From: Mesotaenium endlicherianum
Lineage: Eukaryota
Direction of reading: 5' to 3'
NCBI GenBank assembly: GCA_009602735.1
Contig: WELA01002904.1
Coordinates: 1-41,847, forward strand
Length of the DNA: 41,847 nt
Shown: positions 9,278 through 31,897 of the stretch, one piece after another
How the letters are laid out: every line of letters begins with the position of its first letter
Position numbering within the stretch: position 1 is the stretch's first letter
Program-made: the position numbers and the translations under genes
The notes under the pieces: model-generated
The model's input: only the letters and a program-made list of their open reading frames with translations
Database searches by the model: none
What the model was told of the DNA's origin: nothing

Positions 9278-9513
9278 CTGTCATTTCAGTTGACACGGGA
9301 AGGTGACAGGCGGTCCTGTCTCCATTTAAGTTGGAGGGGAAAATATATGACAGTTAGTGAGCGAGAGCGATAAAAACACACTCATACGTTTATGTGTAGC
9401 GCATCGCAACTACGTCAACTTTTAGCAATCATCCTGTAAGGTAAACAGCAGCGAAGCCACTATACTAAATACTAACATACTTCCTGCAATCCCTATGACA
9501 AAGGTCCATATCC

Positions 9514-9543
9514 TACTAACTTGTGCCCTGGTTACATGTGCAG
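9514..9543 (+). promoter_or_regulatory. Putative branch point and 3' splice acceptor for ORF3
   Basis: TACTAAC...TGTGCAG|G ATG; conserved in A3 at ~13513-13542 (minus). Confidence 0.65.
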
Positions 9544-9544
9544 G

Positions 9545-11221: not shown

Positions 11222-11334
11222 GGTGACAGGCTGAAAAGATAGTCAGTAAGGGAGGCTGGTCAGGGTCAGTTTCTTTATTTAAAGCTTTTGCAGTTTAATG
11301 TTGTCGAGGCGACAACAAGTTAAGTTGGAGGGAT

Positions 11335-12080
11335 TGTAATGAATCAGTATATTAGTAGATATAATATTCATTTAAATATAATAGTTAATTTAGTTCAGCC
11401 TGCTGAACTTTAGTTAGTAGTCAGTCTGCTGAACTTTAGTTAATAATCAGTCTGCTGGACTTTACATAATTATCAGTTTAATGACTCGGCCAAAAGCAGC
11501 AGGCTGAAGTCAACTTAAGTCAGCTTGCTGACACATTCTTTGACAGCCAGCTGACTTCCGTACTCGGTAGCAGCGAACTGCCTTGATATGCATCTAAGTG
11601 CGATATGCTAGATGAATGGCCAGATGACATCCCTATGATGGATGGCTATTCGGGATGATGGGAGATGGCGGTGGATTTGGTTAATCGAGGTCCTACCAAC
11701 GTGGTTAACTCCCGGGTAGGCGGTGCCATCGCACTGACCGTTGAACAGTAAACTCATTCCATGTACATATGCTAGGCATTGCTCTCGAGTTCGGCATTCG
11801 GAAACGAGGCCAACTCTCTTGTACAGCTTACTGAGAGCGATCTAAATCCAAGGCGAGAAGCCATTGATACGCACTGTCTTCTAACCTTGCTTATATATGA
11901 GTTTACTGATTTGCATTATTGATGCTAGTTTACTCACATTTGACTTACAAGTATTATTCACTGCTAGTGTGTTGTCCTTTGCCGTTAAACCAGTTAACAA
12001 AAAATTCCATAAAGATTACTTGCTGATATAAAGATCTTTATTAATTGTTAATCGCCTATTTGGTAAGTCGATTCATTTCA
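11335..12080 (+). repeat. 3' LTR of A2 (PPT at 11322-11334)
   Basis: TGTAATG...TTTCA after AAGTTGGAGGGAT. Confidence 0.93.
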
Positions 12081-13511
12081 TTCCCTGGCCAAGTACTCTC
12101 AGCTCCTTCTCTCAACTTCATTGTAAGCTGGCAATAGTGTGAGGTAGAACACCGTATCTTTAAAGCTATCGGACCGCATGCTCACCATCCTGATGAGTCT
12201 CTGATCTCCCACTATCCCCGGTATTGGGACTGGCTTGCTCTCTGAATCGTCGGCAAGGTACCGGGCCTGCTCTGTTGTATAACCCACCATCTTGGCATGA
12301 TCCTCGTAGAGGACCACACCTGTGTGTGTTTCAATGTACCTATCCAGTGCTGCGGTTCCTTCCCTTTGTAGCAGTGTTGTCTGTTCCAGCTTGTTGATCT
12401 CCTGGGTTGCTAGCAATGCTTCCTTCAGGTTATCAAAGTTTTGGCCACCCACCATAGTATACCTATAAGTGGCCAAGCTCTTGTGCCTGTCCGCTTCAGC
12501 CTTTTTCCTTCTCTCCTCCTCTGCCGCTGCCGCTTCTTCTTGTTGTTTCTTCTGTCTCTCCTCCTCAACTTTCCTGAGGTTTTCCGCTTCCTGATCCTTC
12601 TTCCTCTGTGCTTCTTCTACCGCCTCTTGTTGTTTGCGGACCCTTTCTTGTTCTCTCCTGGTGAGGGACGTCGCCGCCAGCTCCTTCTGGTATTGCTCCA
12701 TTGTCCTCCTGGCTTCTTCTGCCTTGCGCTATCTGTCCTCCTTGAAAGGGGCAGAGTGCCCTAGTGGAAGCGTAGTGACTCACGAGGAAAGGAACTAGTT
12801 GCCATCATACTAGAGAGTGCAGCGGCATATCACTAACACAGCTTAGGAAAATTACTCAACATTTTGAGTAGCAGGAAACTGTTCACAAATGATGTAGGAT
12901 GAAAGGCCGTGTCATTACAAACCCGTAGAAATTTACAGAAGTGAAAACTCCTAAGAAACAAAGAAGTTATGCCTATTTATAATTTTCTGCTCAAGTGCTC
13001 CCCCCCTAGGAGGAAGCTACGGATTTTCCTAAGTGTTCGTCAAATCGTCCCTTCCAGAATATTCGTGAGTAAGCCAGATCAGTCTAATCTGACGTGTCGG
13101 GCCGAATTGACGTCCATATACATGCATCGACATTACTAGAATATTCTATCTTAGACGCGCTAGGCTAAACCGAAACTTCTAGGTAAATCGACCTAGTCGG
13201 CACTCCGCGTCAGCCGAACTTACGTGAAGGTTCGAGTTCATTCTAACGGGCCAGATCGCTCGACGCTGTCGGTCAATCCGACGGTCGCGCTCACCGCGAA
13301 TTAAGGACAGTCGTCAACCGACCTCAAAACTAATTAAAATTCGGAAATCCATAACTCTCTCAATACTTGACCAAATTTGATGAACTTTATATCAAAATGA
13401 CCACAAAAATGAACTCTACACTACTATACAATCAAAACATACTTTCATGATACTCAAAAATGCACTTCATAAACCTATGACCTTACACTCCTTTTGTGTG
13501 GTGGGAGCCAT
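12081..13511 (-). pseudogene. A3 ORF3, N-terminal half, interrupted by a solo LTR
   Basis: ORF 12099-12701 matches A2 ORF3; its ATG lies at 13511-13509 beyond the insertion. Confidence 0.88.
12743..13487 (-). mobile_element. Family-B solo LTR with 5-bp TSD
   Basis: CTCCT at 12738-12742 and 13488-13492; TG..CA ends; removing it restores ORF3. Confidence 0.93.
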
Positions 13512-13903
13512 TCTGCACACGTAACCAGGGCAGAAGTTAGTAGGATCGTCCTTTGTCCCAGAAGTTGCAGGAAGGGAGTAAGTTCGTATTAGTATGGTGT
13601 ATTCGTTCTTGTTTACCTTACAGGGCGATTGCTAGGAGTTGACGTAGTTGCGGTGCGCTAGACATGTACGTATGAATGTGTTTTCAAGTGTGTTCAGTGA
13701 TGTATGGTTGTGCGAGGCCCTTTTTCCTTCAGCTAAAGGTGCTTTATGTGGGCCAGGCTGTTCCCTCTGTCACTATGTTGACACTTAGGGTTCACCTAAC
13801 TATCCCTTTCTCGCTCTCGCACACTAACCGTCATATATTTTCCCCTCCAACTCAAATGGAGACAGGATCTCCTGTCACCTTCCCATGTCAACTGAAATGA
13901 CTG

Positions 13904-16240
13904 TTAGGGAGGTGCTCCAGCCGCCCGAAGGTGGAACCGTTTCAACGCCCCTTTGGCATTAGTCAAATGGTCTTTAAATTCCCAAGTGTCCCCGAAGGCA
14001 TCGTAACCCTTCCATCAAATGAGGTACTTCATGACATATTTAGACGATTGACGGACCGAGCGCGCGTCTAAAATCTCCTCAACCTCATATTCCTTAGGGT
14101 CGCCTTCCCGGACAGCGAGGACTGTCCCGGTTGGACAGGTAACCGACCTGTGAATAGTGTATCACCTTTGATGCATGGTTCCACGAAGGAGACATTAAAG
14201 ACCAGATGACCCTTGTAGTCGGCTGACATGTTCAGTTTGTAAGCATTCTTACCGACACGACGCACCACCGAATATGGACCGACCCAGACCGGGCCATGCT
14301 TTTTCTTAACCACACTAGGGAGGTACAGGTGCTGAAAATGCAGTTTGACCAAATCGCCTTCAGAAAAATTCAGTTCTCGACGGTGTTGATTAGCGTACTT
14401 TTGTTGGTTTTCTTGGGCTCTGAGCAGGTTTTGCTGGACTTCTAACAGGGTGTCAGCAAACTCCTGAGTTAATTGGAGGGAGACCGGATTGTCAATCCCT
14501 TCAAGGTGAGTTAAAGACTCCCCTAGGACATCTAAAGGAGACTTAGGGACTCTACCCAGGCTTAGTTCAAAAGGAGTCTTGCCTGTTGACGCGTGCACCG
14601 CACTGTTGACCGCAAATTGGATTTGGGGTAATAGGTCATCCCAGTTATCTTTTTTTGGCTAACATAGGCTCTCAGTACCTCTTGCAAAACTCGGTTAGTT
14701 CTTTCACTCTGCCCATCAATCTGAGGGTGGTTTGCTGTGCTGAGCAGGTGTTTGACTCCCATTAACCCCATTAAAGCCCTCCAGAACTTAGAGGTAAATT
14801 TTGAGTCCCTGTCTGAGATTATATTAGAGAGTAGCTCATGGTGGCATACTACATGGTTGTAAAACTGTCTCGCTATTTCGAGTGCAGTTACTTTAACAGT
14901 TGTGGGGATGAAAATGACCATTTTTGTCAGTTTATCCACGACTACCAGTATCGAATCATGCCCATTGGCAGTTCGTGGCAGTGTGACCACCCAGTCCATG
15001 GATATAGTTTCCCAGCGGCCAGCTGGGATGGGCACCGGTTGTAAGAGGCCCCCCGGTGGTGTGTGCCTAGACTTATTCTTTTGACACTGGTCACAGGACT
15101 TAACGTATTTCAAGACCTCCCGAGGTAATCCCTCCCAATGATAATGTTTTGCCAGTTTGCCAACAATTTTGGCCTGCCCCAAATGCCCACCCAGTAAACT
15201 GTCATGTGCTTGACTCAATAAAAGGGACCTTATTTCCACGTTATTAGGAATGACCAGCTTCAGCCTGCCTAAAGTGGTTTCAGTCACCCAGACCCCTCCC
15301 TTAAGCTTATATCGGAGTACAGTAGCACGACACATACCAGTAGTGGGGCTGGGCTCAAATGTTGGGTCAGAAAGGTAGGCTTTCCTAAGTTGTTCAAGGA
15401 AGGACTTTTTCACCTTTAGTGAAGTGAGTGCACACAGGACTTTATCTACAGCATGCTGACTAAAGTTCCTTTTGTGCAAGTCAGGTCTTCTAGAGAGTGC
15501 ATCAGCAGGATTCAACTTCCCTGGTTTGTAGTCGATTTGGACTTGAAATTGCTCCAACATCTGGCTCCAGCGGTTCTCCCTCCTCGACAGCTTGGACTTC
15601 TTCTGAAAGTGAGTCAGAGCTAGATGATCTGTAATCACCTTAAAAGCTTTACCATGCAAGTATGCTCTCCACTGTTTGAGCACATGAATGATAGCTAGCA
15701 GCTCTTTATCATGCACTGAGTAATTAATCTCCGCTGGATTAAGTTTTATAGAATTGTACAACATAGGGTGCCACTCCTGCCTTACCTTAACATCCTTTGT
15801 GGTTTTGTCCGCAGGCTGCAACAAAATAGCACCCATGGCAAAGTCAGAGGCATCAGTGACCACCTGCACCGGCTTGCTGGGGTCATACACGGCTAGCACT
15901 GGGGCAGAACAAAGGGCATCTTTAAGGGTCTGGAAGGCAGCCTGCTGCTCTTCCCCCCACACATACCCGATGTCTTTCTTAGTAAGGTCAGTCAGTTTAC
16001 TGGCCTTTGTGGAATAGTTCTCAATAAATCTCCTATAGTAGTTAGCCAACCCGAGGAAGGATCTAACTTCAGAGACAGACTGTGGTACTGGCCAGTCCCT
16101 TATGGTCTGGACTTTCTTAGGATCCACACTGATGCCTTCTTTACTGACAACGTGGCCTAAGAATCCAATACTTTCTTTAAATAAATCACACTTGCTCATT
16201 TTAGCATATAAGTGATTTTTTCTCAGAGTGTCCATGACGG
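13904..16240 (-). pseudogene. pol: A3 pol, 3' part (end of RT, RNase H, integrase, chromodomain), frameshifted
   Basis: ORFs 14562-16331 and 14068-14598 match A2 pol; frameshift near 14650 and a stop in the chromodomain. Confidence 0.92.
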
Positions 16241-16390
16241 TGTTGTGCGTTAAGAGATCGGGTGCGCCTTGTCGGCATAAGCAGCACACAATAGACAAGC
16301 AGGCTTTGCTGCAATGAAGTCTATAATACAAATGGCTGTATAGCCAAAAAGGGAGTCAAGCGTCGAATGTTTTAATTCCCCCCCCAGCTC

Positions 16391-19300
16391 TCAGCCTCTA
16401 GCTGATGGGCTGTGTACGCTGCCTAAGGCTAGCTTAGTGCAGTCTTCGCAGAACCAGTCGTCAGCGGGCACGCGGGCCAGCGGCGGGTCGAGGCAGCCGA
16501 TGTGGAAGCCGAGGTTGCAGCTGTCGCAAAGCAGCATCTTGGCCTCCTGGCCAGCGCTGTGACAGATCTGGCACGCCCAGTCCTTCGGCGGCCGCGCGTC
16601 GCGGGGACGGACCTGCAAGTCCAGGTTAGGAAGATGGCACGGCCCACAATTCTTCGTGTGGTCCTTGTGAAGACGGCCATCTGCGCCTTCCAGCTCCAGG
16701 ACGCCTGACGCCAAGGCACGCTTGACGCGCAGGATGACCGGCGAGCTGCTGGTGTCGAGGCTGTTCTTCGTCTGGCGTCGTAGGTACACGAAGTCGCCTA
16801 CGGAAAATTGCAACGCCCGCGGATGATAGGCTCCTCCACGAGTCATGGCGTACCTCAGAATGTCGCGATGCTGTGCGATGCTGAGGTTATCCATGGCCAT
16901 GGGCATCAGGCGCCGGAAGAGCTGAGCACGCTGCCCGATAAGAGCACTCCATGTGTCGGGACTGTCCAAGTCCAAGACGTTCTCGGCCACCGTTCTGGCT
17001 GCTGCTGGCAGGATGGGCTGTCGGCCGTAGAGAAGGAAGTAGGGAGGGTGCGAGGCTAAGGAGGCCTGCTTACTGAACCTGTACCTCATCGCCAGCCAAG
17101 GGAGGGCGTCGTCCCAGTAGGTACGGTCGTGGGCAAGGCAGTACTTCCGCAGCCCTAGCTTGACGGTCTGCACCATGCGCTCGGCGAGGCCGTCAACCTG
17201 AGGATGATCGCGGGAGGTGGTGCGGTGGTCGATCATAGAGCGCTCTAGTAGCTTCTGAAAGCTGCCCTGGAACTCCTTGCCCTGGTCGGTCAGCACCTCA
17301 GCGCATCCGCCGAAACGGCTAAGGACCTGATTGAGGAAGGCCTGCGCGATCCCCTCACTGGCCTTGCTGGGCAAGGGCACGAGCTCGATCCACTTGGACA
17401 TGTGCTCAATCATCACCAAGACGTAGAGGTTGCCCTGGCGAGACTTGGGCAGCTCTCCAGCCAAGTCAAGCAACCACCTGTAGAACAGCCCCTGAATAGG
17501 AAGGGGGCCGAGGGCAACGGTGCGCGCTGTGAAGCTCAAGCGCACACGGTCGCAGAGAGTGCGGCTGCTGACGACAGCGGCGACGACCTTAGTCATGCCG
17601 TGCCACCAGTACTCGGCCTGAAGAAGACTGAGGGTGCGCTTGACACCGAAGTGCCCGAGGGACTCGTGCACTCGGCGCACCAGCTGACTGCGTATGGCAG
17701 GCTCAGGGACCACCAGGATGGAGCCGTCCGCCATCACGCGCCTCACGCGCCCCTCCATGAAAATGAAGTTGCGGCTGCGTCTGAGGATGCGGTCGCGCTC
17801 GCGTGCGCTGACATCGGGTGCCAAATCCTTGGCCGTGACGTACTGCAGTACTGGGGCGTCGTCCCACACGTCCTCGGGACCGCGCTGCCAGCTGTCCTGG
17901 TCCTCTGCCGCTGCCAGGGCCAATTGCCGAGTGGTGACGGTGACCATGTCCAGGCTAGTGAGCCCTGCGGGTCGTACATCGCCGTCCACGGTAAAGGCGA
18001 GGAAGGCCGCCGCATGCCAGGCTACCGGCTCATCCTCATCGTGGTGAGCCACAGTGAGATCCCTCGAGGAGGGCAGCGGGTTACGGCTGAGACCGTCAGC
18101 GTCCAGGTTGGTCGAGCCTGGACGGTGGTGCACGTCGAAGGTGTACTCCTGCAAGATAAGCGCCCACCGTGCGTACTTGCCGGTCAAGCGCTCCGACGTC
18201 ATGAGCCACTTAAGTGGCTGATGGTCGGTGACCAGGCGGAAGTGCGTGCCGTAGAGATAGTGCCTGAAGTGCACGATCGCCCAGACTGCTGCCAGGCACT
18301 CCCCCTCGTAGGAGCCATAGTTGCCTTCCGCGCGGTTGTTGCTGCGGCTGGCGTAGGCCACCACATGCTCGAAGCCGTCATGCTCCTGCACCAGCACAGC
18401 GCCCAGCCCTGCCTGCGACCAGTCGGTGTGGAGGATGAAGGGCTTCGCGTAGTCAGGACGCCGAAGCACAGGAGCGCTCACCAGCAGCTCCTTGAGCTTA
18501 TCGAATGCCGCCTGCTGCTCTGGTCCCCACACGTAGGCAACGCCCTTGCGGAGCAAGTCGTTGAGCGGCTTGGCTAGCTCGCTGAACCCTGGCACGAAGC
18601 GGCGGTAGTAGTTGGCGATGCCGAGGAAGGCCCGCAGCTGCGAGAGATCTGTAGGAGGTGGGATGCCTGTGATGGCCGAGATCTTTGCCAGCTGGGTTGC
18701 CAAGCCGCTGGAGGAGAGCAGGTGGCCAAGGTACTCCACCTCGCGGGTCTCAAAGGTGCACTTGCCTGGATGGCACTTGAGCCCAGCGGCCTCCAAGCGG
18801 TCCAGGACGGTAGTGATGTGCACCACGTGCTCCTCAAACGTCTGACTGAAGACGAGCACGTCATCGATGTAGCATCGGGCAAAGGACAGCCCGACCAGCT
18901 CCTTATCCATCACCCTCTGAAAGGTAGCTGGCGCGTTCTTCAACCCGAACGGCATCACCACCCACTCGTAGAGCCGCTGTGCTCCCCAGAACGCCGTCTT
19001 ATGCTGGTCCTCCTCGGCGATGGGAATCTGGTTGAAGCCCTGACGCAGATCCAGCACTGAGAACCAAGTGCACGTGCCAATGTCGTCAAAGATCTCGTCA
19101 GGCGTCGGCATAGGATATCTGTCCTGCTCGGTGACCTCGTTCAGCCTACGATAGTCACCGCACATCCTCTTCTCGGACCAGTTGCCCGAGGCATCCTTCT
19201 TGGCTGGCATGACCGTGGGTGCGGCATAGCGAGAGGAGGACTCCCGAATGAGCCGGCTGTCCTCCAGCTTGCCTGTCTGCGCGCTGATCAAGCCATCCTC

Positions 19301-22300
19301 GAAGTGGCTGTAGCGATAACGCTTCAGGAAAATGGGCTCCTGCGACGTGAGAGTAATCCGCATGGGGTCCCCCCTGTAGCGCCCGAGATCGTGCATGCCG
19401 CTGGCAAAGCTGGTGCTGCGCCTCTCGTCCAGCAGTGTCGTCAACTGTGCAGCCTGTGCCTTGGTGAGTGTCCCCCCCAGCTTCCATGTCGGTGGAGCTG
19501 GTGGCGTCGCCTGGCCTGCAGCTGGAGTCTCTTGTCTTGCCGCTGGGGTAGACTGTGGTGCTGCAGGTGTCACCTGCCCTGCAGCGGTTGGCGCTCGGCC
19601 TGCCGCGGGTACCTGCACCGTGGCAGCTGCGGCCAGCTGCCTGGCACCGTCTGCCTGCGAGCGAGGAAAAAGAAAAGGTGACTGGGACTCCCTGGGTCGC
19701 TGTGAGGACTCCTCTCTCCGCCGGCCCCCCCCCAGCGAACCAGAGTCCTCCCCGCGCGGCGGCGGGGAGGGGGGGCGGGTGCGCGCTTGCGGTGCAGACC
19801 CTGCGCGTCGATGATGCCACGTCGTGCCGGGCGGGGCCTGATTGTCATCGTCGGTGGAGTCATCGTCCATATCATCGGCAGGCCGAGGGAGCTCGGGATG
19901 CCGGGCTGCGGCGCAGAGAGGCGCCAAGGCTTGCGTCTGCAGCAGAATCCACGTGAGGACGTTGGCGTCGATGGCCTGCCCCAAGAGGCGAATGCGGTTC
20001 ACCTCAGTGAGACCGTCCACATGCGTGAGATGCGGTGGAAAGCCCATGGCACACTCCATCTCTGCAGGGCGTGGCCTGTCAAACATGCCAGTCTCTAGGT
20101 CGATGACCATCCCTCGCTGATCTCCGACGAAGGCGTCGCTGTCATAGCGGCTGACAAAAGTCGGCAGCGCGCGAGTGACGTCATGCAGGACCTCACATTG
20201 CGCCATGGAGGGATGTGGCAGCGCCGTCACGCGCTGGGCCAGACGAGGGGCATCAAGGATGGAGTCAACGGTGCGTGTGTGACGTGGATGAGAGGCGGCC
20301 AACGCCCCGAGAGTGCCTGGCATCGCCAAGTTTGTGAAGTAGGCGCGGACGCGGTGCGCGAAGGAACCAATCTGGGCAGCGTCGATGACGGCCTCGCGGT
20401 CGACGTAGCTGCTGCAAAGAGCGAAGTCGGCGCTAACATCGGGACGGCGATCGTGGCGTGCGGCCACGTTCTCCAGGACCCACGCGAGTGTGTGTGGCGG
20501 CTGGCGCTCCTCAACAATGTTGAGGACGCGGAGCAAGTGCCAGAAGAGGGCCGTGCGGGGATCGCTGAGCGCCCTGCCACGCCCGGCTCTGGAGAAGCCC
20601 TGGCACTCCCAACCGGCGATGACGAGATCAACGGGCCCAAGTCGGGTGACATGCTCGACGGTGATGTCGCGGATGTCCATGGGCCAGTCTGTCTGAGCGC
20701 GGCGGAATGCGTGCGCGGGAAGGAGGTCAGGGAATCGCTCGTGGCCCAACGCCATCTGTCGACGGGCCACCTGCTGGGCCTCTGGATCGGGATCGACGTA
20801 GACGTAGCGGCGCACCGGGATGCCGGCCTGTAAGGTCGCGAGTAACCCGGTGGCGATGCCGGCAAAGAGCCCGACGAGGACGATGCCGCCAGGTCGCTCG
20901 TTCAGAGCGTCTGCGCAGATAGGAGTCGGAAGTGGGCGACACCCCACGGCAAGGGTGCCGGGCTGAGCGGGCGGCGGGAAGGTACGCTCGGCGCTGTGCT
21001 GATGTGGCGCCATGCGGAGGGCGGCCACAGCATGGTCTGCGTAGTCACGCGTAAGGTTGGGGATGCGGTCAGTGAGCGGCTGCGGTCGCTCTCCCCATGC
21101 GTGGTCCTGGTAGGTGCGCCACCACAGGCGCGCATCCTGCAGGGCTGTGGGAGAGACAGCGCGGGCCTGATGTCGAGCCGAGGCCACGCACAGATGCTGC
21201 CACCTGTCGCGCTGGGCGCGGTCAGTCTGGTGCGAGGCCGCGTGGGCCAGCTGGTCGAGAACGGGACGCTGAGTCAAGTAGGGGTGCGGGTCGTAGTAGG
21301 CCCGCTGGCGTACGCGCATGTCTGCAGAAGGGACTGTGCAAACGGAGCGCTCGGAGTTGTCGACCTCCTGCGGGGATCGAACCAGCCGGCAAGGGGCCAG
21401 CTGGACTCGCGGCCGGGGCTGCCCTCGTGGGACGGGCGCGTCCCGGGGCTTCCGGAGACTAGACATGAGCCGTGTGCGTGCGGCGGCCGTAAAGGGGTGA
21501 CGACTGGGCGGCCTGCTGTTGGTGCGGGCCACCTTGGGAGGAGGTGACCCGGAGGGACCGTCGCCAGCGATGTGGCTGCAAGGGACGCTGACGCGCGGAG
21601 CTGTAGGGGCCAGCATCACGAAATGCGCCTCGGAAGAAGACTGAGTGTCGTCGCCAGCTGAGAGGGACCGGAAGGGCGGAGTGCGGCGTCGGTCTCGAGG
21701 GTCGTCGTATGGCGGCGTGTCCCCGTGGGTCCGCGTGTCGTCGTAAGGAGGTGTGCGGTCCCTGTCGTCGTAGGGTGGCGTGACGAAGCGGGCGCGCGTC
21801 TCGCGGAGGGGAGTCACCTCTCGCGCCTCGCAAAGGGGTGTGAGCGATCGGGAGCGGCTCGTCTCGCGGAGAGGAGTGGTCTCTCGAGCAGGTCCGATGG
21901 TCGGCCAAGTGCGATGTGCGTAGGTCAGATGGGCGCAGATAGACGGGGTCGTGCGGCGTGGCTCGCGGACGCTCAGCCTCGGCGCTGGCTGCTGTATGGA
22001 GTGTGCGCCAGCGCTAGAGGAGGCCGCGGCAGCCTGGCTCGTCGCAAACAAATGCGCGATGCGGCGACACTCGTGGCTCGTCGAGCAGTCGTGTGACACT
22101 GGTCGGCTGGGTCCAGCGGCGTCGGTGCAAGCCCTGCTGAGCCAGTCGTGAGTCATGGGCTGGCTGGGTACGCTGAAGCCGGGCGGACCAGTAGGTGTGC
22201 GCCGCCTGCGTGTTGTAGGCGCAGTTGGCGGGGGCTCTTCGGGTGGCGCCGCGCTGAGGGCCTCGACGGAAGCCTCTGGCAGTCGTTCCCACTGCGTCTC

Positions 22301-24001
22301 CTCCTCACTTGTGTGGGACTGGTCGTCGGATTTGCCAGGACAAGTTGCCTGCCGCATAGCCTCGTCTTCGGATGCCGTGGGGCAAGGCCAGGTCTCGCCG
22401 GTCTGATGCGAGGTGTCGTGCGGGGGCGGCTGAGAGTCCATACTGTACTGAATGGCCACGCCAACAGGCACGTCGTGGCGAACGCGGACGTCGGTCCTCG
22501 CGGACGGTTCGCCTCGAGTGGCCGAGACCCCCCCGTGATGAGTCGTAGGCGCTGCGACTGCACCGCGGGCAAGGGCGGCGGCAGCAATGGCTGTGCTGGC
22601 CGTGGCGAGGGCCTCAGTGGCATCATCCGCCATCTGCCGCATCATCGCGCTGTGGGCAGTGCAGATGCGGATCTGCTCCCTGGCCTGGGCTGCCAGGACA
22701 TCCGCCTGCTGCTGCGGCGTGAGATGGAGCTCGGCACTAGGTAGGTCCGGCTCCTCGTCCTGTGACTCGAGCAGGTCCACCCCCACAGAGATCTCCTCGT
22801 CCTCGGGCCCGTCCTTATTGGTCTTGACCACTGGCCGGCCATCGTCCAGCCCCATGAAGCCATAAAGAGCGGACACTGCTGGGCGGCGATCGACAATGTC
22901 AAGGGGCAAGGATGCGGTGCGCGTCCCCCCTGTCCTCCATTCGGGGCGATAGAAGACGCGCTCTGCCCAGTTGTCGACCGCGGCGCCAATGGGAAAGAGC
23001 ACGTCCTGCCTTAGGAGCACATCAAAGGACTCGGAAGGAGTGACGAGTGCGTGCCGATGGATGGTCGTCTCGTCTGCCGTGCCTGGGCGCAGAGTGAACG
23101 GTAGCGCCAACCTCGTGCGGCCGGCGACGGTCTCGGACGTACCGGCGGCGGTGTTAATGCGCGTCGGAGAGTCCTCCAAGTCAGCAGAAGAGAGTCCCAG
23201 CTGACGGAAGTAGCGGAGGCTGATGAGGACCGGCTGCGCTCCTGTGTCAATCATGATGCGCTGCGGCGCTTGGGTGTTGACGAGCACGATCCCCTGCGAA
23301 TTATCCAAAAACGCGACGTTAGGAGTGCTGATCATTTTGCGCTCATGCGCAGGGCGCGCGGGCGTGGATCGCACCGCGGTGGCGGCATCGGCCGTCGGTC
23401 TCCTGGCGGCGGTGCGCAGCGTGGCTCTGCGTGACTGGAGCATCAGCTGAGCGGCCTGCCTCGTTGCCTCCATGGAGACGCCGAGCTCTGCGAAGGAGAC
23501 CGCCGGCATGCGGTGCAGCGCCAGAGAGATGACCTCCGCGCTGAGCTGTACCGTCGTCATAGGTGAAGCGAGCGCATGAGGCGTCGGCTCAGCTGAGATC
23601 GTGGAGGGATCTAGGATGCGGAAGGAACGGGGGAGCCGGGGTGTCTCCTTCGTCCGGCGTCCTTGGTCTGGCCCGACGCGCTTCTGTGGAACAACGGGCC
23701 GACTGATCGGTGCGGCGAGCGTGTGCTCGCGGCTCGCGCGCCTGACTGTGGAGCGATTGCCGAGTGGCTGCGCGCGTGCGCAGCAGGCCAGAATGGCTGC
23801 TGCTGGCGCAGCCGGCAAACTTGCCGCGTATCCGGCCGCGGGGACTGTAACAGTGCCGTCTGCGAAGCCTGCCGCGAGGCCTGCTGCGCAGCCTGCCGCG
23901 CAGTCTGCCGTACTGTCGGTCGCAGGACCTGTTGCGCAGCCCGCTGCAAGTCCTGCCGCCCAGCCTGTCGCGAGGTCGGTTGCGCAGCCTGCCGCAGGTT
24001 C
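16391..24001 (-). CDS. pol: Element E polyprotein: aspartic protease, linker, DNMT, RT, RNase H, integrase, PHD (5' end lies in an N gap)
   Basis: IMIDTGAQ protease; MPFGLKNAP and YIDD RT; HTDWSQAG RNase H; HESLGH, DLAG, TDQG and AERMV integrase; open for ~7.6 kb. Confidence 0.94.
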   Translation of the reverse strand, partial: EPAAGCATDLATGWAAGLAAGCATGPATDSTADCAAGCAAGLAAGFADGTVTVPAAGYAASLPAAPAAAILACCARAQPLGNRSTVRRASREHTLAAPISRPVVPQKRVGPDQGRRTKETPRLPRSFRILDPSTISAEPTPHALASPMTTVQLSAEVISLALHRMPAVSFAELGVSMEATRQAAQLMLQSRRATLRTAARRPTADAATAVRSTPARPAHERKMISTPNVAFLDNSQGIVLVNTQAPQRIMIDTGAQPVLISLRYFRQLGLSSADLEDSPTRINTAAGTSETVAGRTRLALPFTLRPGTADETTIHRHALVTPSESFDVLLRQDVLFPIGAAVDNWAERVFYRPEWRTGGTRTASLPLDIVDRRPAVSALYGFMGLDDGRPVVKTNKDGPEDEEISVGVDLLESQDEEPDLPSAELHLTPQQQADVLAAQAREQIRICTAHSAMMRQMADDATEALATASTAIAAAALARGAVAAPTTHHGGVSATRGEPSARTDVRVRHDVPVGVAIQYSMDSQPPPHDTSHQTGETWPCPTASEDEAMRQATCPGKSDDQSHTSEEETQWERLPEASVEALSAAPPEEPPPTAPTTRRRRTPTGPPGFSVPSQPMTHDWLSRACTDAAGPSRPVSHDCSTSHECRRIAHLFATSQAAAASSSAGAHSIQQPAPRLSVREPRRTTPSICAHLTYAHRTWPTIGPARETTPLRETSRSRSLTPLCEAREVTPLRETRARFVTPPYDDRDRTPPYDDTRTHGDTPPYDDPRDRRRTPPFRSLSAGDDTQSSSEAHFVMLAPTAPRVSVPCSHIAGDGPSGSPPPKVARTNSRPPSRHPFTAAARTRLMSSLRKPRDAPVPRGQPRPRVQLAPCRLVRSPQEVDNSERSVCTVPSADMRVRQRAYYDPHPYLTQRPVLDQLAHAASHQTDRAQRDRWQHLCVASARHQARAVSPTALQDARLWWRTYQDHAWGERPQPLTDRIPNLTRDYADHAVAALRMAPHQHSAERTFPPPAQPGTLAVGCRPLPTPICADALNERPGGIVLVGLFAGIATGLLATLQAGIPVRRYVYVDPDPEAQQVARRQMALGHERFPDLLPAHAFRRAQTDWPMDIRDITVEHVTRLGPVDLVIAGWECQGFSRAGRGRALSDPRTALFWHLLRVLNIVEERQPPHTLAWVLENVAARHDRRPDVSADFALCSSYVDREAVIDAAQIGSFAHRVRAYFTNLAMPGTLGALAASHPRHTRTVDSILDAPRLAQRVTALPHPSMAQCEVLHDVTRALPTFVSRYDSDAFVGDQRGMVIDLETGMFDRPRPAEMECAMGFPPHLTHVDGLTEVNRIRLLGQAIDANVLTWILLQTQALAPLCAAARHPELPRPADDMDDDSTDDDNQAPPGTTWHHRRAGSAPQARTRPPSPPPRGEDSGSLGGGRRREESSQRPRESQSPFLFPRSQADGARQLAAAATVQVPAAGRAPTAAGQVTPAAPQSTPAARQETPAAGQATPPAPPTWKLGGTLTKAQAAQLTTLLDERRSTSFASGMHDLGRYRGDPMRITLTSQEPIFLKRYRYSHFEDGLISAQTGKLEDSRLIRESSSRYAAPTVMPAKKDASGNWSEKRMCGDYRRLNEVTEQDRYPMPTPDEIFDDIGTCTWFSVLDLRQGFNQIPIAEEDQHKTAFWGAQRLYEWVVMPFGLKNAPATFQRVMDKELVGLSFARCYIDDVLVFSQTFEEHVVHITTVLDRLEAAGLKCHPGKCTFETREVEYLGHLLSSSGLATQLAKISAITGIPPPTDLSQLRAFLGIANYYRRFVPGFSELAKPLNDLLRKGVAYVWGPEQQAAFDKLKELLVSAPVLRRPDYAKPFILHTDWSQAGLGAVLVQEHDGFEHVVAYASRSNNRAEGNYGSYEGECLAAVWAIVHFRHYLYGTHFRLVTDHQPLKWLMTSERLTGKYARWALILQEYTFDVHHRPGSTNLDADGLSRNPLPSSRDLTVAHHDEDEPVAWHAAAFLAFTVDGDVRPAGLTSLDMVTVTTRQLALAAAEDQDSWQRGPEDVWDDAPVLQYVTAKDLAPDVSARERDRILRRSRNFIFMEGRVRRVMADGSILVVPEPAIRSQLVRRVHESLGHFGVKRTLSLLQAEYWWHGMTKVVAAVVSSRTLCDRVRLSFTARTVALGPLPIQGLFYRWLLDLAGELPKSRQGNLYVLVMIEHMSKWIELVPLPSKASEGIAQAFLNQVLSRFGGCAEVLTDQGKEFQGSFQKLLERSMIDHRTTSRDHPQVDGLAERMVQTVKLGLRKYCLAHDRTYWDDALPWLAMRYRFSKQASLASHPPYFLLYGRQPILPAAARTVAENVLDLDSPDTWSALIGQRAQLFRRLMPMAMDNLSIAQHRDILRYAMTRGGAYHPRALQFSVGDFVYLRRQTKNSLDTSSSPVILRVKRALASGVLELEGADGRLHKDHTKNCGPCHLPNLDLQVRPRDARPPKDWACQICHSAGQEAKMLLCDSCNLGFHIGCLDPPLARVPADDWFCEDCTKLALGSVHSPSARG
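16439..16573 (-). other. PHD finger (C4HC3) at the C-terminus of the E integrase
   Basis: CQIC...LLCDSCNLGFHIGCLDPPLARVPADDWFCEDC. Confidence 0.93.
19940..20890 (-). other. DNMT3-like C5 cytosine methyltransferase domain within the E polyprotein
   Basis: Motif I LFAGIATG; DIRDI; IV DLVIAGWECQGFS; VI LENV; VIII AHRVRAYFTNL; IX EMECAMGFP; X RIRLLGQAID. Confidence 0.92.
21670..21890 (-). repeat. Coding repeats TPLRE(T) and TPPYDD in the protease-DNMT linker
   Basis: RETTPLRETSR..TPLCE..TPLRETR..TPPYDD x3..TPPF. Confidence 0.75.
23855..23998. repeat. Degenerate 12-bp coding minisatellite next to the assembly gap
   Basis: GCCTGCCGCGCA-like units encoding (C/L)AAG repeats. Confidence 0.75.
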
Positions 24002-24426
24002 NNNNNNNNNNNNNNNNNNNNNNNNNNNNNNNNNNNNNNNNNNNNNNNNNNNNNNNNNNNNNNNNNNNNNNNNNNNNNNNNNNNNNNNNNNNNNNNNNNN
24101 NNNNNNNNNNNNNNNNNNNNNNNNNNNNNNNNNNNNNNNNNNNNNNNNNNNNNNNNNNNNNNNNNNNNNNNNNNNNNNNNNNNNNNNNNNNNNNNNNNNN
24201 NNNNNNNNNNNNNNNNNNNNNNNNNNNNNNNNNNNNNNNNNNNNNNNNNNNNNNNNNNNNNNNNNNNNNNNNNNNNNNNNNNNNNNNNNNNNNNNNNNNN
24301 NNNNNNNNNNNNNNNNNNNNNNNNNNNNNNNNNNNNNNNNNNNNNNNNNNNNNNNNNNNNNNNNNNNNNNNNNNNNNNNNNNNNNNNNNNNNNNNNNNNN
24401 NNNNNNNNNNNNNNNNNNNNNNNNNN
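24002..24426. other. Assembly gap (N run)
   Basis: Run of n bases; true length unknown. Confidence 0.99.
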
Positions 24427-24710
24427 CCAAGTGGCGGCACGTGCGCGGCAGGGGCTGAGCCTTGGATGTGCGCAGCTGCGGGTGCGCTGTCGACGCTGCT
24501 GCCGGCGATCCGACCGCACAGCGCGGTCAGGACCCCCCCTTGTTGACCGAGGGTGGCGGCCGCTGCGGCCGTCGCTGCGTTGGCAGTGCAGGCCTGCGCG
24601 CATGCGACACTTGGCAGCGCGTGGGTGCAGCTGCTGTGCGCAGCTGCAGCTGCCGCTGCAACGACGTCGTGGCGTCGCCGGGTGTGCCGTGTACCTGGAC
24701 GCACATTGCG

Positions 24711-26078
24711 CTAGGCGCGCGTGGGAGCCCGCGCGAGTGCGTGCAGGCTGCTGTTTGCAGAAGCGCCTGCAGCTCTGGCAGCGGATGCTACGCCGTTGCG
24801 CGGAAGTGCCCGGGGCTGCGGTGCTGCCGATAAGCGTGATGGGTGCGCTGAAGCTGTGCGTGCACCAGCTGTCATTGCCGTGGCGTAGGGCGGAGGAACG
24901 GACGCGAGGAGTGCTCCACACGCGTCATAGTTACCGACGTCGATGAGGCCACGGAGTCTAGCGATCTCCGCGTTGGCCTCCACGAGGGCGTCGCTGACGT
25001 CGTCGAAGCTGCAGTAGTCGGCTCCAGGCATCAATGCGGCGTCTGTCGTGGCCGTAGCTGCTGCCATAGCGGGGCGGCCACCCGTACGAGGGTTGCGTGT
25101 GCCTTGCTGTCCTGCTGAAGGCGCAAGGCCGTCGCGAGCGCGTCCGTTCTCGACGTCGCGCTTCTTCTGCAGACAGACGATCTGTAGGTGGCCGGCCTTG
25201 CCACAATAGGTGCAGTCGCCGGGCTTGCCATTCTGCGCGAGAGTGCAGTTCTGGCGTGAGTGGCCCATCTTACCGCAGGACCAGCAGGGATCGCTCGTGG
25301 TGGCAGCCATGGAAATGCGGCCACGCGTAGCTCCGCGCTGCTGCGTCTGCTGGGGCAGCTGAGAGCGCTGAGGCTGCTGCTGCTGCGACGGGGGCTGGCG
25401 GGCCGGCGTCGTGCGCGTCGTAGAAGACGGCAGCACTGAGGCCTCCTGGCGCACGCCCGTGGATGCTAAGCCCACACGATCGCTAATGTTGCTTCGTGCG
25501 GCGGCCAAGCTCTGCTTCTCAACGGAGAGGTAGGCCTGCTCCAGAGAATCCTCTGAACCGTGGCGGTCGATGAGGGGGACTACGGCCCTCTCCCTGAGAC
25601 GCGGCTCGGCGGCACGCAAAAAGATCTCCGCGACCTCCCGGTCAGTGACGGTGCCGACATCGCGGCGGAGGTGCACCAAGCGGCGGTACATCATGCGGAT
25701 AGTCTCGTTCTTGCGTCGAAAGAAATGGTGCAGCTCGTACACCTTCTCTTCAGTTGCAGCCTGGAACTCTGTCTTCAGGATGTTCCAGAAGGCTTGCACT
25801 GGATCAGCTAGCAAGGTCGCCACTGGTGGGTCACCCACAAGCTCAGTGCGGGTCCGGAGCTCGGCCTCCTTCTCACGGAAGGTGTCGCGGGCCTCGTGCG
25901 AGAGGTAGCGCATAAGCGTGTCGAAGACGTCGCGTTTAGTCAGCGTGGGTGTCTTGAGCTTTGCAGCCGCGAAGTCAGCCTGAAACTCCGAGATAGTATC
26001 TTCCAGATCACAGGTGCCTGGCCTACCGCTAAAGCGGTAGGCGGACCTGTCAGTCCTGACCTCTTGGTCACCTGTCAT
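24711..26078 (-). CDS. gag: Gag of element E with two CCHC zinc knuckles
   Basis: CWSCGKMGHSRQNC and CTYCGKAGHLQIVC; probable ATG at 26078 (MTGDQEV). Confidence 0.82.
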   Translation of the reverse strand: MTGDQEVRTDRSAYRFSGRPGTCDLEDTISEFQADFAAAKLKTPTLTKRDVFDTLMRYLSHEARDTFREKEAELRTRTELVGDPPVATLLADPVQAFWNILKTEFQAATEEKVYELHHFFRRKNETIRMMYRRLVHLRRDVGTVTDREVAEIFLRAAEPRLRERAVVPLIDRHGSEDSLEQAYLSVEKQSLAAARSNISDRVGLASTGVRQEASVLPSSTTRTTPARQPPSQQQQPQRSQLPQQTQQRGATRGRISMAATTSDPCWSCGKMGHSRQNCTLAQNGKPGDCTYCGKAGHLQIVCLQKKRDVENGRARDGLAPSAGQQGTRNPRTGGRPAMAAATATTDAALMPGADYCSFDDVSDALVEANAEIARLRGLIDVGNYDACGALLASVPPPYATAMTAGARTASAHPSRLSAAPQPRALPRNGVASAARAAGASANSSLHALARAPTRA

Positions 26079-27286
26079 GGGATACCAGAAATCGTAGTGA
26101 GCCCACAACTGCCGTGTGCTGGAGAGCAGGTTGCTCTTCTTCGGCAAGTTCAGTGACAGTGCTGAGATCTGAGTCTGAGTCTTCTCCACTAACCCCTTCG
26201 TAGTATGGCTGATAAGAAAGCCCACTACGGGTAGGCATACGCTGAAGGTTCTAATTGCTTGCAGGCAAAGAGAGATCTTTTAGAAGTAAGGGATTTGTAC
26301 TCTCCAGAGTGAGCACCTCAAGATTGTAATCTGGTAGGAAAACAACTAATGAAGTATGGCCCAAAAGATCACTGGAAGCACATCATGATCTTCAGAGTAG
26401 TCCTATGGCAAGGGCTTAAGCTGTGACTTTGCTCACCACTTGTGAAGTTCTTCAAGTGACTGGAAGCCTGGAGGGCTTGCTCTTCACAAGAGAGTAACTA
26501 AGTGGTCCTGAAAACACAAGAGATAAAAGTGTAAGCTTTACTGATAATCTCTGTTACTTACACCTGGCATAATGGACTTCTAAAAGATGTCTCTTCTAGG
26601 GACATCTCTAGTACTTATACTCCTGGAAATCCGGCGGGGTATGCGGCGGATCCAATGCATGTAGTCACTCTAGGAGGCTCTCCTATGTCCACTAATGTGT
26701 ACAAGGCATGTACTAGCACTCCTATAGGCTAAGCATAACTCAAACCAATCAAAGCAAGGTGCGTAGGATATGCTACGTGTTCCTCATTGGCCGAGCTTAC
26801 CTTGGGTGATTCTACCTAGATAGCGCCTCAAAAGTGGATCTGGAAATTGAGGAAGCTTCCTCTAGGAGTAGGTGATGCAGTCACCAAGTTATAGCCTCAA
26901 TGATGCACATATACTATGGAAATGCAAAGCTTATGTAGGCTAAGGGGCTCGCGGATTTGTGCGCACAAGCTAGGGGTTTTAGGGGGTCACGAATAGGCAA
27001 GAATGTGCACATTGAAACACAAATTGCCCTTTGGTGAGGATCCGCTAGGGGCCGGTAGGTGACGCGGACTAGATCGCTCATATCTCGCGCGATACATGAC
27101 CAAATGACGCGAACCCGGTGCCATTCGGAAGGTGACTCGACGCGCTACGCTTTGGTGACTTGGAAATTGAGAAAAGGTCAACATATGGATGCGGAAAGTC
27201 TATGCAAAGTCGACCTTCTTAGCTTGATGGTTCACACATGTGGAGCTCGATTTCGTGCGGCAACCTCGACTCAATAAATCATGACA

Positions 27287-29690
27287 ACGGTCTTTAAGTG
27301 TTCATTGTGCTGAGCTTCATCTTTAGAGAAGATTAAAATATCATCCAAGAAGACTTGCACAAACTTATCCAAATAAGGTCTGAAAATGTCATTCATAGCA
27401 CCCATGAAGGTCGCAGGAGCATTAGTCAGCCCAAATGGTATCACGTTGAACTCATAGTGTCCATAACATGTGCGGAAGGCGGTCTTGTGTTCATCCCCCT
27501 CAGCAATTCTGATTTGATGATAACCACTCTTGAGATCTATCTTACTGAACACCTTAGCACCAGACAAGGTATCAAGCAAGTCCTCGATTCTGGGTAAAGC
27601 ATACTTGTTCTTTACTGTAATCCTGTTCAGAGCTCTGTAATCCACACACATCCGCATACTGCCATCCTTTTTTTTAAGAAATAGGATGGGTGCGCCGTAA
27701 GGTGATTTACTGGGAGAAATATAACCATTTTCCTCAAGCTCTGCAATCTGTGCTTTCAACTCCTCGCTCTCCACATAAGACAAGCCTTAAGTGCGTTGCC
27801 AGGGTGGTTGACTCCCAGGTAATAAATCAATCCTATGATCTACTTCTCTCTTAGGGGGTAGTCCCGGAGGCATACTAAATACATCCGTGTACTGAGCAAC
27901 AATTTTTGCAGCAGTAGGGTGCTCTGGAGGGCTTACCTTTTTCTCCACCACTTCTTCAGGTTGAGGAGGTACCTCTCTTAGCAGCAGCAGAACATTATGT
28001 CTTCCATCTGGTTCCAGCTTTTGACGAACTCCATTGCATTCAGCAACTTGCATCCTTCTGGAAGCCTCTTCTTTTCCTTCAGTTGCCATCCACACATGAC
28101 AAGAGGAAGAGCACTGGTGGGTGCCAAGTTAGTCTGCCCATCACTGGCTCCTCTCACTTTAACTGTACCTCTGCTCCATCACACTTCAGCTTGATATCTA
28201 TTAAGCCAAGACCTGCCTAGCACAAGATCATAAAAGCCAGTGTTTTGTACCACAAATGTAAGCGTTTCAGTTAGAACTGCAATGCCAGAACCTAAGAATT
28301 CAATACTTTCCTTAAAGAAATCACACTTGCTCATTTTAGCATACAAGTGATTTTTCCTCAGAGTGTCCAGGACAATCTTTAAATGTTCAGTGTGCTGAGC
28401 TTCATCTTTAGAGAAAATTAAAATATCATCCAGGAAAGCTTGCACAAACTTATCCAAATAAGATCTGAAAATGTCATTCATAGCACCCATGAAGATAGCC
28501 GGAGCATTAGTCAGTCCAAGTGGCATCACGTTGAACTCATAGTGTCCATAACGTGTGCGGAAGGCAGTTTTGTGTTCATCCCCCTCAGCAATTCTGATTT
28601 GATGATAACCATACTTGAGATCTATCTTACTCAACACCTTAGCACCAGACAGGGTATCAAGCAAGTCCTCGATTCTGGGTAAGGCATACTTGTTCTTTAC
28701 CGTAATTCTGTTCAGAGCTCTGTAATCCACACACATCCGCATACTGCCATCCTTTTTCTTAACAAATAGGATGGGTGCGCCGTAAGGTGATTTACTGGGG
28801 GAAATATAACCATTTTCCTCAAGCTCTGCAATCTGTGTTTTCAACTCCTCGCTCTCCACACAAGACAAGCCATAAGTGCGTTGCCAAGGTGGCTGACTAC
28901 CCGGTAAAAAATCAATCTGATGATCTACTTCCCTCTTAGGAGATAGTCTTGGAGGCATATTAAATACATCAGCAACTTGCATCCTTCTGGAAGCCTCTTC
29001 TTTTCCTTCATTTGCCATCCACACAGGACAAGAGGAAGAGCACTGGTGGGTGCCAAGTCAGTCTGCCCATCACTGGCTCCTCTCACTTTAACTGTACCTC
29101 TGCTTCAACACACTTCAGCTTGAAGCCAGGACCTGCCTAGCACGAGATCATAAAAGCCAGTGTTGAGTACCACAAATGTAAGCGTTTCAGTTATAACTGC
29201 AATGCCTGAACCTAGCTGGACCTCAATAGGCTTGGTTATAACTCCTCCCGGGATACTTGAGGCATCTCCAAGGAATATTTTTCTATTGCCTTGGGTGACA
29301 GTGGGCAGCCTTAGCCGCTTAACTAAGTCCTTATGGATAAAAGTATGTGACGCCCCTCCGTCAACAAATGCCCTCATCTTCCTACCTGCAATCATGCAAT
29401 GCAATAGGATAGGGAGGACTGTCTTTTCCTGACTTTCGCATTGTTCTCCTGACTTAGCAAAGAAATGTTGGACATCAGGTGGAACAAGAGCATCCAGAGT
29501 GTGCACTCTCTGGATGTCTATATTGCTGATGGTCTCCTTTATNCGATGGTCTCCTTTATCTGATTGTTAGGCATGCATAGTGAATCCAGCAAGACCCATA
29601 ATACCTGCTACGAGGGTAGCTAGTGACGACTCACTATCTCTAGCATCCTCACAGTCAGTAGACTAGATTACTGACTGTTGTTGTCTTTTA
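27287..29690 (-). pseudogene. pol: A3 pol, 5' part, with tandemly duplicated PR-RT segment, deletions and stops
   Basis: ORFs 29105-29506, 28179-29024, 27787-28095 and 27271-27783 match A2 pol; the RT N-terminal half is present twice. Confidence 0.9.
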
Positions 29691-31143: not shown

Positions 31144-31177
31144 ACAAAGAAGACTGTGATAACTGCTCCGATACCAC

Positions 31178-31897
31178 TGAAATGAATCGACTTACCAAAT
31201 AGGCGATTAACAATTAACAAAGATCTTCATATCAGCAAGTAATCTTCATGGTATTTTCCATTAACTGCTTAAACGGCAAAGGACAACACACTAGCAGTGA
31301 ACAATACTCGTAAGTCAAATGCGAGTTGACTAGCATCAATAATGCAATCAGTAAACTCATACATAAGTAAGGTTGGAAGACAGTGTGTATCAATGGCTTC
31401 TCGCCTTGGATTCAAGTTTCTCTAAGTAAGCTGTACAAGAGAGTTGGCCTCGTTTTCAAATGCCGAACTCGAGAACAATGCCTAGCATATGTACATGGAA
31501 TGAGTTTACTGTTCAACGGCCATTGCGATAACACCGCCTACCCGGGAGTTAACCACGTTGGTAGGACCTCCTTTAACCAAATCCACCGCCATCTCCCATC
31601 ATCCCGAATCGCCATCCATCATAGGGATGTCATCTGGCCATTCATCTAGCGTATCACACTTAGATGCAAATCGAGGCAGTTTGTTGCTACCGAGTACGAA
31701 AGTCAGCTGGCTGTCAAAGAATGTGTCAGCAAGCTGACTTAAGTTGACTTCAGCCTGCTGCTTTCGGCCGAGTTATTAAACTGATATTAGATATGAAGTC
31801 CAGCAGACTGATTATCAAGTAGGGTTCAGTAGGCTGAACTTAATTAACTATTATATTTAAATGAATATTATATCTACTAATATACTGATTCATTACA
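31178..31897 (-). repeat. 5' LTR of A3 (PBS at 31165-31176)
   Basis: Reverse complement of LTR A, followed by TGGTATCGGAGC. Confidence 0.93.

Follow-up and report, generated by a model that had tools for sequence, protein, structure and literature searches.

The stretch analysed here, referred to as the window, is contig WELA01002904.1 of Mesotaenium endlicherianum (assembly GCA_009602735.1), taken over its positions 1 to 41,847; all coordinates are those of the whole 41,847-nt stretch. It contains, on the minus strand, a Ty3/Gypsy-type retrotransposon with a DNMT3-like C5 cytosine methyltransferase domain inside its polyprotein and with terminal repeat sequences that are split into two parts, A and B, arranged as A-coding-B (Table 1). 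The element is inserted in the reverse transcriptase (RT) of a chromovirus-type element, and both termini were confirmed by reads and contigs. The order protease, RT, RNase H and integrase, the TG..CA ends and the 4-bp target site duplication (TSD) agree with the canonical description of Ty3/Gypsy elements. The canonical pair of long terminal repeats (LTRs) is missing: there are no two identical terminal repeats and there is no TG-starting 3′ LTR after the polypurine tract. The element does not belong to the DIRS order, as no tyrosine recombinase was found in the two element frames scanned and an rve core, an H2C2 finger and a TSD are present instead.

The pol frame (16391-24526, minus) crosses the 425-N assembly gap, and its continuity is certain only from 24001 to the stop at 16391. 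This certain stretch holds all six domains: protease, methyltransferase, RT, RNase H, integrase and PHD finger. The PHD finger resembles fingers of the KMT2D/UHRF1/CHD4 type. A CCHC knuckle is located in the gag-like frame at approximately 25242-25289. A search of Rfam gave no match in 16000-27500.

Table 1. Features of the retrotransposon and its insertion site.
Feature	Position	Strand	Evidence
Element as a whole (A-coding-B; 11,046 bp; termini TG..CA)	16241..27286	-	reads and contigs with empty-site joints and with loose ends at each terminus
TSD ACGG, left copy	16237..16240	.	sequence comparison
TSD ACGG, right copy	27287..27290	.	sequence comparison
Repeat part A, promoter side, starts TGTC; inner edge is the A-B joint of other copies	26288..27286	-	
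TATA-like box 31 nt ahead of arm 1, putative promoter	26614..26619	-	
Arm 1 of 13-bp inverted repeat; predicted RNA 5′ end and self-primer	26576..26588	-	
Arm 2 of inverted repeat; predicted primer-binding site, directly past A	26275..26287	-	
Gag-like frame	24714..26078	-	
Assembly gap, 425 N	24002..24426	.	
Aspartic protease (DTG, motif at 23251)	23003..23284	-	PF13975/PF13650, E 3e-6 and 1e-5
C5 cytosine methyltransferase domain of DNMT3-like type; canonical order of motifs I-X; Cys 20603-20605	19922..20914	-	
Reverse transcriptase (YIDD at 18871)	18722..19177	-	PF00078, E 1e-30
RNase H	18143..18529	-	PF17917, E 1e-36
Integrase, H2C2 finger and core with D-D35-E	17171..17701	-	domain scan
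C-terminal PHD finger, complete C4HC3	16439..16573	-	E 1e-10
G8 polypurine tract just past the pol stop; putative plus-strand primer	16378..16385	-	
Repeat part B, 137 bp, polypurine tract to CA terminus	16241..16377	-	in other copies GC links it to where A begins

The methyltransferase domain

The original prediction placed an in-frame DNMT3-like domain with an intact catalytic Cys, ENV Glu and RxR arginines between protease and RT, and this is borne out. The motifs LFAGIATG (20869), GPVDLVIAGWECQGFS (20638), LENV (20476), IDAAQ (20386), HRVRAYFTN (20356), EMECAMGFP (20062) and RIRLLGQAID (19996) were all found, and the catalytic Cys, the ENV Glu, the RxR arginines and the FxG loop that binds S-adenosylmethionine are present. 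The domain matches PF00145 with an E-value of 5e-9 and 36.5 bits, above the cut-off of 22 bits. The top matches in a sequence search of the PDB were DNMT3C, 3A and 3B (E 3e-15), and a search with a profile of 71 sequences ranked DNMT3A (3e-28) above DRM (1e-15) and M.HhaI (1e-10). The AlphaFold model has a predicted local distance difference test score of 96.3 and a predicted template modelling score of 0.94. Its best fold matches are DNMT3A and DNMT3B (Z 29.9, root-mean-square deviation 2.6, 273 residues aligned), with M.HhaI at Z ~25. Both by the closest solved sequence and by fold the domain is therefore DNMT3-like.

The catalytic loop reads W-E-C-Q-G-F-S-R-A-G, as compared to S-P-C-N-D-L-S in DNMT3, with Glu in place of the Pro preceding the catalytic Cys. 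In view of this difference the specificity of DNMT3 is not transferable to the domain. The domain is probably an active cytosine methyltransferase.

Three other sequence features were observed around the domain. It is separated from the protease by a linker of ~670 amino acids (20915-23000) that is rich in Pro, Arg, Thr and Ser, contains short TPPYDD repeats and has no Pfam match. Between the methyltransferase and RT there are two GCTGGGGGGG tracts (19725-19736 and 19471-19481, minus) that resemble the 3′ polypurine tract and may serve as central plus-strand primer or as frameshift site. In many relatives LGG(G) directly follows the methyltransferase.

Distribution, conservation and selection

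The domain is found in a large family. Clustering at 50% protein identity gave 136 matching clusters at E<1e-30 and 493 at E<1e-10. For the analysis of conservation 205 proteins were fetched, from which 10 distant bacterial-type matches were removed to give a set of 195; the counts refer to rows with a residue in the column concerned. The catalytic Cys and the motif VI Glu are each kept in 192 of 193 proteins and the two arginines in 185 of 190 and 186 of 189. W-E-C is the commonest form of motif IV (94 proteins), followed by W-P-C (61), which makes it a trait of the family. The deviation from S-P-C that was pointed out earlier is thus real, but it is not a lesion.

Further copies also contain the domain. 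Contigs of two other organisms cover it without gaps at ~97% identity (X5 record 12, 755 bp with 23 differences; X8 record 21, 606 bp with 18 differences), so that it is not a one-off insertion. Among distinct pairs of metagenome relatives with finite dS, the ratio of nonsynonymous to synonymous substitution rates (dN/dS) is ~0.15-0.19 for the methyltransferase and ~0.10-0.19 for the integrase. Selection on the methyltransferase in these distant relatives is purifying.

Two layouts occur among the 195 proteins. The methyltransferase precedes RT in 32, as in the window, and is located between RNase H and integrase in 97, the other 66 being fragments. The RNase H-DNMT-integrase layout occupies one side of a branch with a support, by the Shimodaira-Hasegawa-like approximate likelihood ratio test, of 98 in a quick RT-RNase H tree with two outgroup rows and of 90 in a likewise quick methyltransferase tree of family members with five distant outgroup methylases. 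From the latter tree P0192, a long branch that grouped with the outgroup, was dropped. This second architecture was not found in the published descriptions of these elements that were available. The nearest full-length relative of the window element, P0026, has the same domain order in one frame and 63% identity in RT-RNase H. Named members come from Calypogeia (a liverwort), Closterium, Mesostigma and Klebsormidium. Two single records stand out. P0016, an RT-RH-DNMT-IN-PHD polyprotein, is filed under the name of a bacterial metagenome-assembled genome and is probably mis-binned eukaryotic DNA. The 3602-aa member P0030 has an additional match to PF00293, presumably a NUDIX domain.

Statements on published elements, here and below, refer to the parts of the cited sources that were available to us. 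De Mendoza et al. (2018; PMC5890265) described KnitGypsy-Dnmt3, a Gypsy element from Klebsormidium nitens whose Pol contains a Dnmt3 domain with Ka/Ks below 0.2, and according to the legends its repeats are arranged in the DIRS-like form A-coding-B-A-B. The K. nitens protein GAQ93235.1, which we infer to be one of these copies, has the order knuckle, protease, DNMT and is 33% identical to the methyltransferase region of the window over 323 amino acids. The shared features are a Gypsy Pol with a non-permuted Dnmt3-related domain in frame and the same knuckle-protease-DNMT order. The differences are F-P-C in GAQ93235.1 versus W-E-C in the window element, and the published A-coding-B-A-B versus A-coding-B in the window copy. 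In terms of sequence the element very probably belongs to the KnitGypsy-Dnmt3 kind. PHD-bearing Gypsy elements have also been published, for example Gypsy-7a (PMC9940879), and the suggestion that the methyltransferase in combination with a PHD-integrase and LTR-less ends forms an undescribed system is not supported. For Selgy elements a PHD could not be confirmed (0 matches). The text of PMC5890265 mentions no priming sites, junction palindrome, repeat mechanism or PHD, but a figure in it may show a PHD, and the later papers, in the parts available, merely cite the KnitGypsy case.

The conservation data bear on the possibility that the W-E-C domain has lost its catalytic function and is a mere passenger, or that it is an isolated capture of a host gene. 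The Pro before the catalytic Cys is missing, and the window copy drifts: 14 of the 23 coding differences listed relative to sister copies change an amino acid and 9 are silent. The KnitGypsy domain gave no methylation in yeast, which also weighs against activity of the window domain; the authors judged the assay inconclusive, and human DNMT3B was inactive in it as well (PMC5890265). However, Glu is the majority residue at the position of the Pro (108 of 194 relatives), and the Cys, the motif VI Glu and both Arg are nearly invariant at ~35% identity. The domain is spread over 136 clusters at the strict threshold with a dN/dS close to that of the integrase. A dead domain or an isolated capture is accordingly improbable.

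Split repeats and joints

The window copy was described earlier as LTR-less. A repeat pair or terminal inverted repeats above the level of shuffled sequences were indeed not detected in it; the best local score was 18 and the mean of the shuffles 19.7. The family does possess repeats, however, and its ends are split rather than absent. In sister copies 27286 is joined to 16241 with GC in between, giving B-GC-A (depth 444 in X1; a loose end in X5). A second joint connects 16376 to 26287 and thereby A directly to B; it was seen in an X1 contig with a depth of 1518, in a variant contig and in 2 RNA reads. One letter of this A-B joint is ambiguous, so that 26288 to 16377 is another possible reading. 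The G8 tract is immediately followed by 16377, and 26288 is the base that adjoins arm 2 (26287-26275). Since its edges adjoin the G8 tract and arm 2, the A-B joint unites the two predicted ends of a linear cDNA. Together B-GC-A and A-B are the two diagnostic joints of an A-coding-B-A-B arrangement.

The two arms of the inverted repeat (26588-26576 and 26287-26275) form a 13-bp repeat that was reached in 1 of 200 shuffles, with a fold z of -2.9. Within A, at ~26495-26565 (minus) and immediately past arm 1, lies an intron-like stretch, GTAAGT ... TTTTCAG, the splicing of which would make the loop between the arms shorter. The sequence TGGTATC at 26087 was considered as a tRNA-Met primer site and rejected, as it matches over 7 nt only, lacks a preceding CA and lies 200 bp from the edge of A.

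An entirely different origin of the ends should be considered, in which an LTR-less methyltransferase element would have inserted into an unrelated solo LTR consisting of A and B, so that the ends would belong to another family. The GC content is 44-47% in A and B as compared to 62-67% in the coding part, and A and B are found joined elsewhere. However, the A-B joint is direct, lies at a G-tract and a primer-site-like arm, and shows no duplication. The layout of G-tract, B and palindrome past pol recurs in about ten distant families. This origin is highly improbable and already largely refuted.

The palindrome in related elements

To collect relatives at the DNA level, 8 aligned proteins of the RH-DNMT-IN type were used, and the 42 loci obtained therefore represent distant relatives whose architecture is not that of the window element. 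Scans with single proteins yielded relatives in 0 of 157 stretches of metagenome contigs and 0 of 5 of viral contigs. The palindrome GACAGCTGTC is present in 14 of the 42 loci, once per locus, against 0.37 expected, and in each case a G-run lies 57-205 nt upstream. These 14 loci represent about ten families; the integrases of seven of them are 45-66% identical in pairwise comparisons. In the 11 loci with listed frames, the palindrome is located outside plus-strand frames of at least 250 amino acids in all 11. With at least 2 kb of sequence past the PHD, 12 of 18 loci contain it. Of 8 loci examined, 6 have arms of 11-14 bp past the palindrome, separated by loops of 199-363 nt, and L001 and L004 also have a TATA-like box at -30.

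RT and integrase matches were obtained without a methyltransferase match in 8 of the 42 loci. Relatives without such a match, L016-L019, retain the PHD finger, and L017-L019 also retain the GACA-GC-TGTC palindrome, so the end structure is independent of the methyltransferase.

Records of the curated Chlamydomonas repeat library (PMC9940879 supplement) were inspected by eye, and their kinship to the window element was not established by alignment. In the portion seen, the palindrome occurs at least 11 times, with an adjacent G-tract in at least 9 cases. Gypsy-14a ends with G-tract-B-GC-A-B, in which the final B begins right past a copy of the G-tract sequence. In Gypsy-7a, the terminal 8 bp of the LTR followed by GC form the end of the internal part, in agreement with the shorter left LTR given in the legend (PMC9940879). 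In Gypsy-21_cRei the LTR ends with GACA and the internal part begins with GC-TGTC; this is the opposite permutation, as predicted by the end-joining mechanism described below. Gypsy-14b_cRei contains a methyltransferase-like stretch before the integrase from which the catalytic Cys is apparently missing.

Possible mechanism of integration

The mechanism should account for split repeats, for both joints and for a palindrome that lies where B and A meet. In the scheme that we prefer, the RNA would start at arm 1, ~30 nt past the TATA box, and transcription of a full-length copy would proceed through the coding part, B and GC into the second A. The RNA 5′ end would then pair with arm 2 and serve as primer of the minus strand, so that no tRNA is needed; in Tf1 likewise the first ~11 RNA bases are complementary to the primer-binding site (PMC7175516). 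Priming of the plus strand at the G-tract would give a linear cDNA of the form [B-GC-A]-coding-[B-GC-A], in which the CA/TG attachment sites are internal. The two blunt ends of this cDNA would be joined to an A-B junction, either in a 2-LTR circle or by an equivalent end-to-end template jump. Integrase would subsequently cut after CA on both strands of GACA-GC-TGTC, which would produce 2-nt overhangs of the usual kind and an insertion with a 4-bp TSD. One cut could give the published A-coding-B-A-B form or a permutation, which Gypsy-21 resembles. A-coding-B as in the window copy could result from two cuts, from later recombination between B parts or from a collapse in the assembly. We consider it likely that the attachment site of the integrase is located inside the LTR made by RT. 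That the end-joined intermediate is obligatory is somewhat less certain and only moderately favoured.

Several observations weigh against this mechanism. In this family the A-B joint was detected in a single X1 contig, whose shorter side has 29 letters, in one variant contig and in 2 RNA reads with a common start, and the sample behind X1 may be that of the window itself. No single read or contig covers the complete A-coding-B-A-B arrangement in the window family. Several metagenome contigs run unbroken from B-GC-A into gag, which fits tandem arrays as well. The palindrome is missing from 6 of the 18 loci with at least 2 kb past the PHD. Taken singly the arms of the relatives are weak: per 100 shuffles they were reached 42 times for L001, 8 for L004, 6 for L006, 0 for L018, 55 for L024, 8 for L020 and 25 for L028. 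Gypsy-7a has a TGG-type site past its LTR (PMC9940879), and self-priming is therefore not general.

The unbroken contigs suggest another scheme, in which the ends spread as head-to-tail tandem units or 1-LTR circles (A-coding-B-GC-A...) that are cut at the palindrome, with A-B joints as by-products and no joining of 2-LTR ends. The contigs of L001, L005 and L018 close into circles without a break, those of L017 and L020 run from B-GC-A into gag, and the window copy is a single unit (a monomer) flanked by a clean TSD. On the other hand, the A-B joint sits at the predicted ends of the linear cDNA, and the Gypsy-14a record and the Gypsy-7a and KnitGypsy legends all give A..B-A-B (PMC9940879, PMC5890265). 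A monomer would also lack a second A to provide the redundant RNA end. We regard tandem units or 1-LTR circles as an unlikely route and return to end joining in what follows.

Comparison with known systems

In Tf1, Tf2 and Tcn1 the LTRs are of the ordinary paired kind and the attachment sites stand at the ends of the cDNA; unlike the window element they contain no methyltransferase. The likeness is in complementarity between RNA start and primer site (PMC7175516, PMC6317226), for which the window element has a pair of 13-bp arms, the first of them 31 nt after the TATA box. Cleavage of a palindromic LTR-LTR junction is known for the integrases of foamy virus (PMC1180852) and HIV-1 (PMC1905944). 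These are also DDE enzymes that cut an internal palindrome of two attachment sites, but there the palindrome arises from joined cDNA ends, whereas the window element would carry it as a templated part of the LTR, and its joined ends would form a different junction, A-B. PAT/Ngaro-type DIRS elements and SymbioDIRS-Dnmt3 have the A-coding-B-A-B layout, and SymbioDIRS also has Dnmt3 in Pol (PMC5890265). Elements of the DIRS order use a tyrosine recombinase, unlike the window element with its DDE integrase, TG..CA ends and 4-bp TSD.

Among Gypsy elements, Gypsy-7a_cRei of Chlamydomonas reinhardtii carries a PHD, is active in laboratory strains and has a left LTR without the last 8 bp of the right LTR (PMC9940879). 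Gypsy-7a_cRei and Gypsy-14a_cRei share with sister copies of the window element the B-GC-A junction past a G-tract (PMC9940879). The B part of Gypsy-7a, compared by eye and not by alignment, is 8 bp as compared to 137 bp in the window element, its primer site is of the TGG type, and its legend shows no DNMT (PMC9940879). The Phygy non-chromoviruses of Physcomitrella have 4-bp TSDs of the form NCGN, tRNA-Trp primer sites and no extra domain listed in the part available (PMC6317226). The TSD ACGG of the window copy fits NCGN, although this is one site only, and the element differs from Phygy in having no TGG after the end of A.

No explanation for the split repeats of these Gypsy elements was found in the literature searched; theses or supplementary figures may hold one. 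The earlier suggestion that the ends deserve attention has thus gained weight, and the end anatomy, rather than the methyltransferase cargo, is the new and weightier part. The published methyltransferase-bearing Gypsy element came from one alga; the present data reveal an old and very large family with two architectures.

Two-LTR circles are usually regarded as dead ends. If the proposed mechanism is correct, 2-LTR circles would here serve as the natural precursor of an element that has a DDE integrase and depends on joined cDNA ends and an internal palindrome for its normal product, and their obligatory use would account for the DIRS-like split repeats. An observational test is within reach, as a Chlamydomonas element that shares the junction already moves in laboratory strains (PMC9940879). 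With some reserve, the proposal might be extended to a large clade of green-lineage PHD-Gypsy elements with an internal attachment palindrome and obligatory 2-LTR-type circles, mostly with an active enzyme of the DNMT3 family that was captured once, was relocated within Pol in one branch and methylates the cDNA before insertion. Programs that search for LTR pairs could presumably miss or mis-delimit elements with such split ends.

Possible role of the methyltransferase

Relatives without a methyltransferase share the same ends, and the enzyme is therefore accessory cargo. Its substrate could be the element's own new cDNA, a tentative assignment that is favoured because the domain stays within Pol in both layouts. 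That the enzyme would be released by the protease and packaged in particles, as suggested earlier, is neither favoured nor contradicted by the present data. Besides the negative yeast test mentioned above, three findings count against own cDNA as substrate. The ratio of observed to expected CpG is 1.04-1.09 in gag, linker and methyltransferase and 0.84 in RT to integrase, as compared to 0.32-0.65 in neighbouring elements, so there is no CpG depletion as a scar of CG self-methylation. The methyltransferase match is absent from the 8 loci mentioned above. In RNA run X23, of which ~6% was read, depth over the methyltransferase was zero.

Alternatively the target of the enzyme might be host DNA where the element inserts, or else RNA of the element, or the domain might serve as a DNA-binding module. 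The PHD finger on the same polyprotein could tether it to chromatin, which together with the missing CpG depletion and the catalytic loop unlike that of DNMT3 would agree with such a role. However, in one large clade the domain has apparently shifted from before RT to the interval between RNase H and integrase and yet remained within Pol, beside the enzymes that handle cDNA. Moreover, the Dnmt3 domains of SymbioDIRS-Dnmt3 methylated CG de novo in yeast (PMC5890265). These other roles appear rather unlikely. On balance, and by a modest degree, we prefer the explanation as a whole: an element of the KnitGypsy-Dnmt3 kind, with a likely active enzyme that acts on its own cDNA and an attachment site inside the LTR. 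For the question of methylation targets the family supplies many natural domains.

The window copy and its surroundings

The gag frame of the window copy is ended by a stop at 24711-24713, where relatives read through into the protease. One of the 23 coding differences mentioned above, at 20871, lies just ahead of motif I. Within the methyltransferase domain falls 1 of the 40 differences listed relative to other copies, which have 735 further differences. With no second A, the stop after gag and private substitutions, the window copy is probably inactive and a dead end.

On both sides (3854-16236 and 27291-41847) the element is flanked by a nest of other Gypsy elements that are CpG-depleted (observed/expected 0.3-0.65), unlike the methyltransferase element. 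The nest comprises several partial copies on both strands. It includes a chromovirus type with Chromo and SH3 domains, with pol at 5447-9277 and a tRNA-Met-type site near 3980, and a second family at 37116-40732. The chromovirus target resumes past the insertion with a local duplication, of which the two copies (27291-27885 and 28376-28970) are 93% identical.

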